A stretch of DNA of 64,000 bases from Escherichia coli (GTDB lineage Bacteria; Pseudomonadota; Gammaproteobacteria; Enterobacterales; Enterobacteriaceae), in assembly GCF_003018255.1 (NCBI RefSeq), contig NZ_CP027440.1; one strand, given 5' to 3'. This document shows, one piece after another, positions 15,053-28,300 of this stretch. A model generated the notes under the pieces. The model saw only the letters and a program-made list of their open reading frames with translations. It ran no database searches and was not told the DNA's origin. Numbering within the stretch: position 1 is the first letter of the stretch; the number at the start of each line of letters is the position of its first letter. A program made the position numbers and the translations under genes.

Positions 15053-16948
<1,896 letters not shown>

Positions 16949-22701: not shown

Positions 22702-22731
22702 AAAAAACGAGGAGGAAGCTCCTCGTTTTTG
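22702..22731 (+). terminator. Rho-independent terminator after yqjF
   Basis: aaaaaacgaggaggaagctcctcgttttt. Confidence 0.75.
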
Positions 22732-22749
22732 CTATTGGAGGAGAGAAAT

Positions 22750-23735
22750 ATGGGTCAACTGATTGACGGCGTCTGGCATGACACCTGGTACGAACCAAAT
22801 CTACCGGCGGTAAATTTCAACGTTCAGCTTCCGCATTTCGTAACTGGCTCACTGCCGATGGCGCGCCAGGCCCCACTGGCACAGGCGGTTTTATCGCAGA
22901 GAAAGATCGTTATCATCTCTATGTTTCACTCGCCTGCCCGTGGGCGCACCGCACGCTGATCATGCGCAAACTCAAAGGACTGGAACCGTTTATTTCCGTT
23001 TCTGTAGTGAACCCGCTGATGCTGGAAAACGGCTGGACCTTTGATGACAGTTTTCCGGGTGCAACCGGCGATACACTCTATCAACATGAATTTTTGTATC
23101 AGCTTTATCTCCACGCCGATCCACACTACAGCGGACGAGTTACTGTTCCCGTACTGTGGGACAAAAAGAACCACACCATCGTCAGCAACGAATCAGCGGA
23201 AATCATCCGCATGTTCAATACCGCGTTTGATGCGCTGGGCGCGAAAGCGGGTGATTACTACCCACCAGCCCTGCAAACGAAAATTGACGAACTTAACGGC
23301 TGGATTTATGACACCGTTAACAACGGCGTGTATAAAGCTGGTTTTGCCACCAGCCAGCAAGCTTACGACGAGGCGGTGGCGAAAGTGTTTGAATCGCTGG
23401 CGCGACTGGAGCAGATTTTAGGCCAGCATCGTTACCTGACCGGCAATCAGCTAACCGAAGCCGATATTCGCCTGTGGACCACGCTGGTCCGTTTTGATCC
23501 GGTGTATGTGACCCACTTCAAGTGTGATAAGCACCGCATCAGCGATTACCTGAATCTGTACGGTTTTCTGCGCGATATCTACCAGATGCCGGGGATCGCC
23601 GAAACTGTCAATTTCAATCACATCCGTAATCATTACTTCCGCAGCCATAAGACCATCAACCCTACGGGGATTATTTCAATTGGTCCGTGGCAGGATCTCG
23701 ATGAACCGCATGGACGAGATGTTCGCTTCGGTTAA
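22750..23735 (+). pseudogene. yqjG: Glutathionyl-hydroquinone reductase (Xi-class GST) yqjG, frame-disrupted
   Basis: N-terminus MGQLIDGVWHDTWY in frame of ATG 22750; conserved body including CPWAHR is in the -1-shifted frame through to stop at 23735. Confidence 0.75.
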
Positions 23736-23789
23736 AAAAAGGCACCTTACGAGGTGCCTCTGATTATTAGCTAAGTGCGTGTTATTTAT

Positions 23790-23890
23790 GTCGGATGCGG
23801 CGTGAACGTCTTCTCCAACCTACAAAACGTTTATATTCAATATGTTACAATGCCGCGTAGGCCAGATAAGCGTAGCGCATCTGGCGATTT
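23790..23890. repeat. REP/BIME palindromic repeats
   Basis: gtcggatgcggcgtgaacg... and tgccgcgtaggccagataagcgtagcgcatctggcg. Confidence 0.75.
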
Positions 23891-24025
23891 TGCGCTTGTC
23901 ATCAGTCTTAGCGCGCTTTACGGCACTTTATTAATTCCTTGAACGAATATTTACTGCCATTTCATTCACGTCTATTCTTAATTTGCTGCTTTAAAAACAA
24001 GTGATTGAGCAAAATTGAGGCAAAA

Positions 24026-24391
24026 ATGGACTGGTATCTGAAAGTACTAAAAAATTATGTCGGTTTCCGGGGTCGTGCGCGGCGCAAAGAGTACTGGATG
24101 TTTATTCTGGTCAACATCATCTTTACGTTCGTGCTGGGGCTGCTGGATAAAATGTTAGGCTGGCAACGTGCCGGTGGCGAAGGCATCCTGACGACAATCT
24201 ACGGTATTCTGGTGTTTTTACCGTGGTGGGCAGTTCAGTTCCGCCGCCTGCACGACACCGACCGCTCGGCGTGGTGGGCACTGCTGTTCTTAATCCCGTT
24301 TATCGGCTGGCTTATTATCATCGTCTTTAACTGCCAGGCGGGTACGCCAGGCGAAAACCGCTTTGGACCTGATCCAAAACTGGAACCTTAA
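24026..24391 (+). CDS. yhaH: DUF805 inner membrane protein
   Basis: 121 aa from MDWYLKVLKNYVGF. Confidence 0.85.
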   Translation: MDWYLKVLKNYVGFRGRARRKEYWMFILVNIIFTFVLGLLDKMLGWQRAGGEGILTTIYGILVFLPWWAVQFRRLHDTDRSAWWALLFLIPFIGWLIIIVFNCQAGTPGENRFGPDPKLEP

Positions 24392-24403
24392 AACAAATCT
24401 ACT

Positions 24404-24434
24404 CGCCGGATGTCTGACTCATCCGGCTTTTATC
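24404..24434 (+). terminator. Rho-independent terminator after yhaH
   Basis: cgccggatgtctgactcatccggcttttatc. Confidence 0.7.
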
Positions 24435-24633
24435 ATTATGTTGATGAATGAATAATTTACTAATGTTTATTTAAAATATTTCAATGTCGTTATATAAATT
24501 ACCTATAAAAAAATAACCATATATTTATCTTAAATATCAAAACCTTTATAACATCCGAAAAAGAAAGATACGAATAGCATTTACACAATACCCGGAATAG
24601 ACTTTCGTCACTTTTAATTAAAGGGATGTTTTT

Positions 24634-24990
24634 ATGCAGTGGTATTTAGCCGTATTAAAAAATTATGTTGGTTTCTCTGGTCGCGCACGTCGTAAAGAGT
24701 ACTGGATGTTTACTCTGATTAACGCCATCGTCGGCGCTATTATCAATGTCATTCAATTGATTTTAGGTTTAGAGTTTCCATTCCTTTCTCTCATTTACCT
24801 GGCAGCAACAATCATTCCGGTCATTGCTCTGTGCGTTCGTCGTCTGCACGATACTGACCGTTCAGGTGCGTGGGCGCTTCTCTATCTGGTTCCGATCATT
24901 GGCTGGTTAGTTCTGTTTGTATTTGCCTGTTTAGAAGGCAACTCTGGCAGCAATCGTTACGGAAACGATCCGAAGTTTGGTTCAAATTAA
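24634..24990 (+). CDS. yhaI: DUF805 inner membrane protein (paralog of yhaH)
   Basis: 118 aa, MQWYLAVLKNYVGF. Confidence 0.85.
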   Translation: MQWYLAVLKNYVGFSGRARRKEYWMFTLINAIVGAIINVIQLILGLEFPFLSLIYLAATIIPVIALCVRRLHDTDRSGAWALLYLVPIIGWLVLFVFACLEGNSGSNRYGNDPKFGSN

Positions 24991-25000
24991 TTATAGAATT

Positions 25001-25026
25001 GGGGCGATATTTCGCCCCTTTTTATT
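25001..25026. terminator. Hairpin terminator between convergent yhaI and yhaJ
   Basis: ggggcgatatttcgcccctttttatt. Confidence 0.7.
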
Positions 25027-25040
25027 AACAATAACAAATA

Positions 25041-25937
25041 TTATTTTCCGCTAAAAAGTTTGGGAATTTCCCGCAGACACCAGGATTTCGCCTCCCCCAT
25101 ACTGTCACGACGCCAGGCCATAATAATATCGATCTCGCTGGTCGATTCCGGGCTGACGACACGCAACCGCCCTTCCGCGATGTCTTTTTCGACCATCGGA
25201 TACGGCATCGTCGCCACGCCAAGCCCCGCCAGTAACGCCTGACGTTTATCTTCAATCGTGCTCACCGTTAAACGCGGCTGTTTGTCCAGTAGCTGTACGG
25301 TCAATACCGGGCGCTCACGAGCGGTATCCGCCACCGCAATTCCACGATATTTCACGCGCGTCACTTCAGATAACGGTTCCGGCTCCTGATGAATCGGGTG
25401 ATCAGGCGCGGCAACGTAGACGTTCATTAACGTATAGAGCTTGCGCGAGTTGATCTCCGACGAGGAGCGAAAATGCATATCCGGCGCGATAACAATATCC
25501 GCCCGCCCCTGCTCCAGCCGTTCCCATGCCCCCGCCAGCACTTCGGTGATGATTGCCAGTTGGGTATTCGCTTTTGCCGCCAGTTTGTCAATTAACGGGA
25601 AAAAGGCAGGTGTCGGTACCAGCGCTTCGGTCACAATGGTGAGATGCGTTTCCCAACCGCGCGCGAGAGCTTCCGCATCGGTAGTCAGTTTATCTGCGGC
25701 TTCCAGCAAAACGCGTCCTCGCTCCAGCAACATCCTCCCGACATTGGTGAATTTGGTGCGATGGCCCGAGCGGTCAAACAGCACCACATCCAGCTCTTCT
25801 TCCAGTTTTTGCATGGTGTAGCTAAGTGCGGAAGGCACGCGTCCCAGCTCATCCGCCGCCGCCGCAAAACTGCCCCGGCGATCGATCGCATCCATAACCC
25901 GTAGTGCTTCCAGCGTTAATGCCCTTTCTTTGGCCAT
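25041..25937 (-). CDS. yhaJ: LysR-family transcriptional regulator
   Basis: 298-aa ORF with N-terminal HTH. Confidence 0.9.
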   Translation of the reverse strand: MAKERALTLEALRVMDAIDRRGSFAAAADELGRVPSALSYTMQKLEEELDVVLFDRSGHRTKFTNVGRMLLERGRVLLEAADKLTTDAEALARGWETHLTIVTEALVPTPAFFPLIDKLAAKANTQLAIITEVLAGAWERLEQGRADIVIAPDMHFRSSSEINSRKLYTLMNVYVAAPDHPIHQEPEPLSEVTRVKYRGIAVADTARERPVLTVQLLDKQPRLTVSTIEDKRQALLAGLGVATMPYPMVEKDIAEGRLRVVSPESTSEIDIIMAWRRDSMGEAKSWCLREIPKLFSGK

Positions 25938-26041
25938 TTCGTTCTCATTCAGGAAATTTGAACATACCGGGCAGAATATCTGGCTAACAATGTAGCGTCC
26001 AGCCCCTTACCATAAAAGGAAGTAAAGAGAGGTCAAGAATT

Positions 26042-26762: not shown

Positions 26763-26930
26763 ATGATGAGTAAAAAATCGGCCAAAAAGCGTCAGCCAGT
26801 GAAGCCCGTGGTGGCGAAAGAACCTGCTCGCACCGCCAAAAATTTTGGCTATGAAGAGATGTTGAGCGAGCTGGAAGCCATCGTCGCGGATGCTGAAACG
26901 CGTTTAGCCGAGGATGAAGCTACCGCGTAA
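26763..26930 (+). CDS. yhaL: Small protein YhaL (55 codons)
   Basis: MMSKKSAKKRQPVKP... ORF below the ORF-track size cutoff; frame verified by codon count. Confidence 0.6.
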   Translation: MMSKKSAKKRQPVKPVVAKEPARTAKNFGYEEMLSELEAIVADAETRLAEDEATA

Positions 26931-26936
26931 AGACAG

Positions 26937-26975
26937 GTGCCGGATGCGGCGTAAACGCCTAATCCGGCACGATAC
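26937..26975. repeat. REP palindromic repeat
   Basis: gtgccggatgcggcgtaaacgcctaatccggcac. Confidence 0.75.
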
Positions 26976-26989
26976 CCAAAACCTGGCGT

Positions 26990-28300
26990 TTATCTGGCCT
27001 TGCTCGCCATAATCTCGATAATCTGCCGATCCGTTTGCTGCATCGAATGGCTTGCTAACGCACACAGGTTGGCAATCGACTGCTCAACATCATGCGCCAC
27101 AATCCCTTCATTACCGGTTACGGCGGTATCATCCAGCGCCATTAACACCGCTTTCCACGCAGCCGAAGCACTGGTCGAAACCTTCATCGCGCAGCTGTTC
27201 GATGCACCATCGCAAATCATGCCACTGACATCGCCGATCATACTGCTGATCGCCATCGAGATGGTTTCATAACGCCCATCCACCAGCCATGCCATCCCGG
27301 CAGCGGCCCCCATTGCTGCGGTCGTTGCGGCACACAGCGCAGACAAACGCGGTAACTGGTTATGGATGTAAATCGCGCTCAAATGCGAAAGCATCAGCGC
27401 ACGCGCCAGCCGTTCATCATCCGCTCCGAAGTGTTCTGCTACCACCACCACGGGCATTGTTGCGGTGATCCCCTGGTTACCCGAGCCGGAGTTACTCATT
27501 GCCGGAAGCGTAGCGCCGCCCATACGCGCATCGGATGCCGCGCTGGTACGAATCACAATGGATGAAGAGAGATCTTTCGCCAGCAAACCGCGCGCGCACT
27601 GTTTTTCCAGCGTCGCACCAATATGCAGCCCCCAGTTACCGCTCAAACCTTCCTGCGATAACGCACAATTTAACTTCGCAGAATCGAGGATAAAGCGGAT
27701 CGCCGCAAACGGGACTTCATTGACGAACTTCAGGATCTCAGCCAGCGTCGTCCTGGAAAGCACCGTCAGCGGCGACTCTTGCTCGCCCTCTGTCACACAC
27801 GCCTGCTGGGTAAACACCACACCATTGTGCGTCTCAATATGCACAATGTTGGTATGCCCGCCGACGATGGTGACACACGCCCACTTCTCACCGTTCCAGA
27901 CTTTGGCGCGTGAGAAGAGGATTTCATCGCAAGGTTCCTGGATCTTAACTGAGACTTTCCCCGCTGCCAGCAGTGCTTTGGCATCGGCAATTGCCTGCGC
28001 AGTTGCGTCTTTCAGCACTTCCAGCCCGGCGTTAGCATTTCCACCTAACGCTCCCAGCGCCGCCGCAATTGGCAGCCCCACCATTCCTGTACCAGGAACG
28101 GTGACACCCAGACCGTTCTTCATCAGATTTGGCGAAACCCAGGCTTCTACACGTTCAACCGGACCTTCCAGTTCAGCCGCAGCAACCGCCGCCGCCAGCG
28201 CCAGTGAAATCGGTTCAGTACACCCCAGCGCCGGTTTTACTTCCTCCTGAACGGCGAGGATGTAACGCTGCCATAACGGATTTAAAGTCGAATCAAACAT
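26990..28300 (-). CDS. cyuA: L-cysteine desulfidase (YhaM/CyuA)
   Basis: 436-aa ORF. Confidence 0.9.

Follow-up and report, generated by a model that had tools for sequence, protein, structure and literature searches.

The genes yhaH and yhaI of Escherichia coli lie next to each other and encode small membrane proteins of the DUF805 family. Our analysis of this locus in a 64,000-nucleotide stretch of E. coli DNA (contig NZ_CP027440.1, here called the window) indicates that the two genes are, very probably, old paralogs that are separately terminated and separately regulated, and that one of them, yhaI, is dispensable and polymorphic within the species. The window is part of the E. coli chromosome; positions 23700 to 25300 show 100% identity to strain JNE23-011, and 5,422 of 5,426 complete E. 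coli genomes contain a match to this segment. The annotated gene order, yqjF-yqjG-yhaH-(DUF805 gene)-yhaJ-yhaK, with yhaJ on the minus strand, is syntenic with b3101 to b3106 of strain K-12, and by synteny yhaH corresponds to b3103 and yhaI to b3104. The YhaH protein is identical to that of K-12 (no amino acid and five synonymous differences), and the shared position and near-identical sequence identify the gene as the ortholog. YhaI shows 85% identity to K-12 YhaI; position is again shared and the flanks are at within-species divergence, as expected of an allele of the same gene. RefSeq uses the name yhaH for the first gene and labels the second “DUF805 domain-containing protein”; the name yhaI is given by the Prokaryotic Genome Annotation Pipeline (PGAP) to the K-12-type allele only. 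Both are known, long-annotated E. coli genes, and the pair itself is ordinary.

A preliminary description made from the DNA letters alone had placed both open reading frames (ORFs), named the genes, assigned them to DUF805, and called them paralogs, all of which proved correct (Table 1). Alignment of the two proteins by BLASTP gave 63 identical residues of 118 (53%; E = 2e-44) rather than the low identity that would speak against paralogy. Of the motifs quoted as shared, the N-terminal one, WYLxVLKNYVGFxGRARRKEYWMF, is indeed present in both proteins, while the central WWALL occurs in YhaH only (RRLHDTDRSAWWALL in YhaH versus RRLHDTDRSGAWALL in YhaI). Both proteins match the Pfam profile DUF805 (PF05656; gathering cutoff, 25.7 bits) nearly end to end, YhaH with 120.9 bits over profile positions 1 to 111 of 111 and YhaI with 109.2 bits over positions 1 to 110. 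A search of NCBIfam returned sub-threshold matches only. An in-frame TTG at 24005, upstream of the yhaH ATG, is not the annotated start.

The genes are separated by 242 bp (24392 to 24633) with a GC content of 26.9%, compared to 51.4% for the window, and a strong hairpin with a T-run follows each of them, so that the very AT-rich spacer of ~240 bp and the individual terminators described earlier were both recovered. The RNA of the yhaH terminator folds with −15.0 kcal/mol (z = −5.16; none of 200 shuffled sequences folds as well) and that of the yhaI terminator, located between the convergent genes yhaI and yhaJ, with −16.7 kcal/mol (z = −5.15). By part, the GC content is 51.9% in yhaH, 43.7% in yhaI, and 23 to 27% in the spacer, which differs from K-12 at three positions and is partly conserved in Citrobacter rodentium, as is the CpxR-box-like sequence within it. 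Promoter prediction, proposed as a check for the spacer, did not find a canonical sigma-70 site: a standard scan with a 9-of-12 threshold yielded no site in 23700 to 25300, with 2.8 expected by chance. In a relaxed scan, a single 8-of-12 match, i.e., below the standard threshold, was found upstream of yhaH. This candidate would yield a 5′ untranslated region (UTR) of about 41 to 43 nucleotides (nt), in agreement with the −43 start of a Salmonella yhaH reporter fusion (PMC5137417). An Rfam search gave nothing in or near the yhaH-yhaI spacer, and the small ORFs in the spacer, of 21 to 30 amino acids, are not credible as genes.

Published data point to differential expression of the two genes. 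Overproduction of CpxR in strain MG1655 raised yhaH 1.9-fold on arrays and yhaI 3.2-fold on arrays and 40.3-fold by quantitative PCR, the latter being as large as the effect on spy; the authors caution that effects of CpxR overproduction may be indirect (PMC2731931). In enterohemorrhagic E. coli, Ler, an antagonist of H-NS, activates yhaI 36-fold, which is the strongest effect reported in that study outside the enterocyte effacement locus (LEE) (PMC3891560). For yhaH of Salmonella, direct targeting and repression by the small RNA (sRNA) SdsR has been described, and the YhaH protein rises toward stationary phase (PMC5137417). Independent regulation of yhaH and yhaI, as suggested in the preliminary description, is consistent with these data and with the terminator between the genes. 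Because of that upstream terminator and the published induction of yhaI by Cpx and Ler, we assign a presumed promoter role to the AT-rich region upstream of yhaI. According to this model, yhaH would be transcribed from a weak sigma-70-like promoter with a short 5′ UTR, the target of SdsR in Salmonella, and end at its strong intrinsic terminator. Expression of yhaI would start from the 200-bp, 23% GC region behind the yhaH terminator and end at a terminator of its own. This region may be silenced, probably by H-NS, and switched on by the Cpx envelope stress response and, in LEE-positive strains, by Ler.

Alternatively, yhaH and yhaI could form one operon, with transcription reading through the yhaH hairpin into yhaI and the spacer being no more than an intercistronic region. 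The two genes share their orientation, a canonical promoter was not found between them, both go up on CpxR overproduction, and the corresponding study lists yhaH-yhaI-yhaJ as a single “putative operon” (PMC2731931), though yhaJ lies on the opposite strand. Some of our own results also speak against a separately driven yhaI: the best matches of the relaxed sigma-70 scan in the spacer are weak, non-unique 8-of-12 sites, the CpxR-box-like sequence carries a mismatch and such sites are consensus matches only (the one-mismatch pattern occurs 11 times in the window, with 3.2 expected), and a search for the high-affinity H-NS motif remained at chance level. Nevertheless, we consider a single operon very unlikely. 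A strong hairpin with T-run (−15 kcal/mol, z = −5.2) stands between the genes, the 242-bp gap is long for an operon, induction by CpxR is very unequal (1.9-fold versus 40-fold), activation by Ler was reported for yhaI alone, and yhaI is intact in strains with an insertion sequence, IS1, in the spacer.

The age of the pair was assessed from synonymous sites and from related genomes. Between yhaH and yhaI synonymous sites are saturated (proportion of synonymous differences, pS, 0.59 to 0.98), and C. rodentium likewise has the arrangement yhaH-spacer-yhaI-yhaJ, with a YhaI of 61% identity. These two findings argue for an ancient rather than a recent duplication, which would predate the split of Escherichia and Citrobacter. 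Elsewhere, Intestinirhabdus alba carries a yhaI-type gene alone at this locus, YhaI-type genes are also present in other Citrobacter and in Superficieibacter, and Salmonella houtenae (locus L091) has yhaH alone, with a 38-bp hairpin between it and yhaJ. Nonsynonymous divergence (dN) from C. rodentium amounts to 0.04 to 0.08 for yhaH and 0.22 to 0.46 for yhaI; by this measure YhaH is constrained, and the rate of YhaI is about five-fold higher. Over their first 96 nt (24026 to 24121 and 24634 to 24729, 608 nt apart), yhaH and yhaI show 78% DNA identity. The pS is 0.59 there versus ~0.95 in the rest of the genes, which suggests constraint at the nucleotide level or an old partial gene conversion.

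Among the 5,426 complete E. coli genomes, three states of yhaI were found, i.e., absence (~1,060 to 1,080 genomes, about 20%), the allele of the window (~2,290), and the K-12 allele (~2,080). In genomes without yhaI, such as that of the uropathogenic strain NU14, an unrelated 38-bp segment with one hairpin (positions 2183 to 2220 of the NU14 locus, L003) takes the place of the module 24387 to 25039. The yhaI-less form is an alternative haplotype and not a simple deletion scar. The single-gene layout of S. houtenae resembles that of NU14, but its hairpin is different. Variants with frameshifts at codons ~97 to 107 of yhaI (P0060, P0076, P0008, and P0042), which lose the C-terminal N-x-x-G-x-x-P-K motif, are common (P0060 on 345 contigs and P0076 on 190), and their wide distribution suggests recurrent inactivation. 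Mobile elements were also observed at the locus (L089, 966 to 1663; L090, 618 to 1315; L004): IS1 lies within the yhaH-yhaI spacer in ECONIH6-type strains, yhaH of strain 98200 is truncated by IS1 at its 5′ end, and an IS26-bounded rearrangement in KOr024 deletes yhaH, yhaI, and part of yhaJ. We regard yhaI as dispensable because it is absent from about 20% of genomes, C-terminal frameshifts are common, and some strains carry IS1 in the spacer.

The two yhaI alleles differ almost exclusively within one block of 174 nt. Of the 56 nucleotide differences between the classes, 54 fall in codons 46 to 103, as do 18 amino acid differences; codons 7 to 45 and 104 to 118 are identical, and synonymous divergence (dS) in codons 1 to 45 is 0.035. 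Within the block, 31% of positions differ from K-12 (54/174), with a pS of 0.67, a dS of ~1.7, and a dN of 0.21. The edges are abrupt, the adjoining 117 nt on the 5′ side and 48 nt on the 3′ side being free of differences. The distribution is strictly bimodal: at ≥95% identity, 2,288 genomes belong to the window type and 2,079 to the K-12 type, two are intermediate, and the K-12 class is very uniform (2,057 of the 2,079 at ≥99% identity). On this evidence, yhaI of the window reads as a mosaic allele of the K-12 gene. Gene conversion from yhaH was rejected as the source of the block, whose nucleotide identity to yhaH is only 50 to 55% in either allele, and so was another paralog in the genome, as searches set to find distant matches placed the block at one site per genome (median, 1; maximum, 2). 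A search of 5.8 billion proteins for an external donor gave no protein of more than 68% identity to either YhaI allele outside E. coli and Shigella. Based on the abrupt boundaries and a dN/dS of ~0.12, we favor, as the probable origin of the block, a divergent, unsampled donor that contributed it by way of a short recombination tract.

Two alternative histories of yhaI have to be weighed against these data. The block might be an ancient polymorphism kept by balancing selection instead of a one-off import by a short recombination tract. This would explain the nearly equal classes (2,288 versus 2,079 genomes) with almost no intermediates, the saturated synonymous divergence next to homogenized flanks, and the failure to find an external donor for either allele, and a third state without the gene together with recurrent frameshifts would fit antagonistic selection. 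However, the boundaries look like those of a single tract with clean crossovers, a dN/dS of ~0.12 indicates purifying rather than diversifying selection, rare mosaic YhaI proteins (P0004, P0006, and P0007) show that the classes can recombine, and the uniformity of the K-12 class is expected of a young, spreading allele. We therefore hold balancing selection to be unlikely and a single tract to be the better account of the block. The other alternative concerns the gene as a whole: some lineages of E. coli might have gained the AT-rich spacer and yhaI horizontally, as a module that went in beside yhaH rather than as a vertically kept duplicate, in which case the layout with one gene, seen in NU14-type strains and Salmonella, would be ancestral. 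The low GC content of spacer and gene relative to yhaH and the lack of yhaI in a fifth of E. coli and in S. houtenae are in line with this, as is the haplotype without yhaI, whose unrelated hairpin segment is not the product of a simple deletion. Yet C. rodentium has the same gene order with a YhaI of only 61% identity, so any transfer must be old, Intestinirhabdus has a YhaI-type gene at the locus, further such genes occur in other Citrobacter and in Superficieibacter, and a donor above 68% identity was not found outside E. coli and Shigella among the 5.8 billion proteins. We regard acquisition of the module as rather unlikely and keep the ancient tandem duplication as the more probable origin of the pair.

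DUF805 is a large family, with 28,226 representative clusters matching at E ≤ 1e-3 and 9,759 at E ≤ 1e-10, and members from Bacillota, Actinomycetota, and Bacteroidota show ~50 to 57% identity. A scan of genome contigs gave a best match of 57% identity and did not return Escherichia, Salmonella, Citrobacter, or Klebsiella loci; in 80 diverse DUF805 loci, no conserved gene neighborhood was seen beyond synteny within genera. An alignment of 52 sequences from several phyla contains 18 invariant columns (Y11, F14, G16, R17, R20, E22, W24, M25, F26, L28, P62, R69, R70, H72, D73, N107, G110, and P113), all of which are present in both proteins of the window, and both have the family motifs F-x-G-R-x-x-R-x-E-x-W before helix 1, R-R-x-H-D after helix 2, and N-x-x-G-x-x-P in the tail. 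Hydropathy segments and an AlphaFold2 (AF2) model (mean predicted local distance difference test score [pLDDT], 89.6) indicate three hydrophobic helical elements, i.e., helices 20 to 44, 50 to 73, and 78 to 85 plus 89 to 99, the third being broken at the near-invariant Pro87/Gly90. Lysine and arginine (K+R) counts of 5 to 7 before helix 1, 2 to 3 in the RRLHD loop, and 0 to 1 in the loop between transmembrane (TM) helices 1 and 2, alike in both proteins, put the tail and the RRLHD loop on the same side of the membrane as the N-terminal segment.

Many relatives (among P0174 to P0283) are head-to-tail fusions of two to four DUF805 units, and some carry extra domains. We inspected 32 natural fusions, most of which connect their units through a hydrophilic linker rich in K/R, without an additional hydrophobic segment; each unit retains the Arg-rich motifs, and the TM1-TM2 loops are the only loops nearly free of K/R. 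In P0195, P0199, P0211, P0244, and P0245, the third element is expanded to two full hydrophobic segments. Furthermore, a C-terminal green fluorescent protein (GFP) fusion of YhaH from the ASKA collection fluoresces at the membrane (PMC3225971). Because of these fusions, the K/R pattern, the expanded third elements, and the GFP result, we infer that a unit begins and ends on the same membrane side. The N terminus would then be cytoplasmic, followed by two TM helices with a very short periplasmic loop, the cytoplasmic RRLHD loop, a third element forming a Pro/Gly-kinked, re-entrant hydrophobic helical hairpin, and a C terminus that is likewise cytoplasmic. The invariant polar residues (G16, R17, R20, and E22; R69, R70, H72, and D73; N107, G110, and P113) may thereby all come together in a single binding site on the cytoplasmic face of the membrane. 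Two observations count against this topology: standard hydropathy gives three segments of membrane-spanning length, and an AF2 model of a natural two-unit fusion predicts no defined packing between the units (predicted template modeling score [pTM], 0.50). In sum, we judge two cytoplasmic termini and a hairpin in place of a third crossing to be about as likely as not.

In the literature searched, no paper assigning a function to DUF805 was found. A yhaH mutant of E. coli TK001 is resistant to PhiWec188 and PhiWec190, two phages of the Stephanstirmvirinae, and becomes sensitive again when complemented (bioRxiv 10.1101/2024.11.29.626071; PMC12695924); in our reading, some myophages exploit YhaH as an inner membrane infection factor. 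Neither protein matched a PADLOC anti-phage defense model at E ≤ 0.1. In addition, an unannotated ORF with 40% identity to YhaI was observed in the Shiga toxin (Stx) phages 75/02 and POCJ13, where it is flanked by an antirepressor gene on one side and hypothetical genes on the other (in Shigella phage 75/02 Stx at 16349 to 16693 of the record, or 2501 to 2845 of locus L092). As a best guess, held with low confidence, a DUF805 protein might be a small adaptor or homeostasis factor that is embedded in the membrane and faces the cytoplasm, YhaH being the constitutive or stationary-phase form and YhaI the Cpx-induced form. Still more speculative, and in our view highly improbable, is the idea that DUF805 proteins are inner membrane entry factors for tailed phages, that the three yhaI states and the frameshifts are kept by phage-driven, frequency-dependent selection, and that the 174-nt block is a specificity determinant whose two helices are co-adapted, hence the rarity of hybrids.

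Table 1. Features of the yhaH-yhaI locus (positions in the window)
Feature	Position	Strand	Description
Candidate yhaH promoter	23950-23978	+	Sigma-70-like; −35 TTTACT (23950-23955), 17-nt spacer, −10 TATTCT (23973-23978)
CpxR-box-like sequence upstream of yhaH	23917-23931	-	One mismatch to GTAAA-N5-GTAAA; consensus match only
yhaH ribosome-binding site	24017-24020	+	GAGG, 5 nt upstream of ATG; read from the sequence
yhaH	24026-24391	+	ORF for a 121-amino-acid DUF805 inner membrane protein; RefSeq name yhaH; conserved core copy
yhaH intrinsic terminator	24405-24437 (hairpin 24405-24427)	+	GCCGGATG-loop-CATCCGGC, then TTTTATCATT; terminator scan
AT-rich region upstream of yhaI	24436-24633	+	22.7% GC; presumed yhaI promoter/regulatory region
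CpxR-box-like sequence in the spacer	24456-24470	-	ATAAACATTAGTAAA, one mismatch to GTAAA-N5-GTAAA; consensus match only
yhaI ribosome-binding site	24622-24626	+	AGGGA, 7 nt upstream of ATG; read from the sequence
yhaI	24634-24990	+	ORF for a 118-amino-acid DUF805 protein; non-K-12 allele; fast-evolving, dispensable copy
Dimorphic block in yhaI	24769-24942	+	174 nt, codons 46-103: TM1-TM2 loop, TM2, RRLHD loop, third hydrophobic element
yhaI intrinsic terminator	25001-25026 (hairpin 25001-25018)	+	GGGGCGA-TATT-TCGCCCC, then TTTTTATT; terminator scan
Presence/absence module	24387-25039	+	Last yhaH codons, terminator, AT-rich spacer, yhaI, yhaI terminator

Several features were observed in the neighborhood of the pair. 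The gene yqjG, encoding a glutathionyl-hydroquinone reductase, is split into two ORFs (22729 to 22959 and 22962 to 23735) because one T is missing in codon 15 (22793-22794, GAT to GA-) relative to K-12 and the near-identical JNE23-011. The missing base lies outside a homopolymer; either yqjG is a pseudogene in this strain or the sequencing was in error. The yqjG-yhaH intergenic region is variable, with 24 differences and three indels compared to K-12, and contains a palindromic unit resembling repetitive extragenic palindromic (REP) sequences (GCCAGATAAGCGTAGCGCATCTGGC, 23861 to 23885); yhaH was described as “surrounded by repeat sites” in the y-ome paper. Downstream of yhaL, sub-threshold matches to naRNA4, which derives from REP sequences and bacterial interspersed mosaic elements (BIMEs), were found at 26925 to 26999. 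The divergent yhaJ/yhaK promoter region holds two overlapping one-mismatch CpxR-box-like sequences (26012 to 26036), and yhaJ was reported to be 2-fold up under CpxR overproduction (PMC2731931).

The preliminary description was a correct reading of two long-annotated “y-genes” and in itself changes nothing. Interest lies only in the side observations, i.e., the three-state polymorphism of yhaI with its block of saturated dS, the proposed topology, and the link to phages. DUF805 is among the most widespread families of bacterial membrane proteins without a function: it comprises ~28,000 clusters at 50% identity, and members from different phyla share ~55%. In E. coli, the two copies form a natural contrast. 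One is core, needed by some phages, and sRNA controlled; the other is stress induced and polymorphic, existing as two deep alleles and a null state. This contrast and the testable topology model provide concrete handles for finding the function of the family.

Compared with known systems, the closest counterparts are yhaH and yhaI of K-12, annotated as “putative inner membrane proteins”, which share locus and gene order, an identical YhaH, and a spacer differing at only three positions; the difference lies in yhaI, with its 18 amino acid and 54 nt differences confined to codons 46 to 103. Salmonella yhaH (STM3234), the target of the RpoS-dependent sRNA SdsR, is the ortholog of yhaH in the window and shares its locus; in S. 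houtenae, unlike in the window, yhaI is missing and yhaH is followed by the 38-bp hairpin and yhaJ. Within DUF805, both proteins are typical single-unit members, whereas many relatives are fusions of two to four units. Adjacent genes for homologous small membrane proteins are also known from the small multidrug resistance (SMR) pair mdtI/mdtJ, whose products have opposite orientations. The likeness consists of two neighboring, homologous genes for small multi-helix membrane proteins and of fused multi-unit versions in the DUF805 family; the difference is that YhaH, YhaI, and both units of natural fusions share a strong K/R bias. An antiparallel pair of opposite topology was thus rejected, as the same bias in YhaH and YhaI makes them a parallel pair. 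Both proteins also match the DUF805-like part of phrog_12855, a phage “membrane protein” moron family (E = 5e-22 and 2.4e-27), but they cover only positions 71 to 194 of the 333-position profile, and their genes are chromosomal, with no prophage context. Inner membrane factors needed by phages after adsorption are known in ManYZ for lambda and PtsG for HK97. YhaH resembles these in being an inner membrane protein whose loss blocks infection by PhiWec188 and PhiWec190, with infection restored by complementation.

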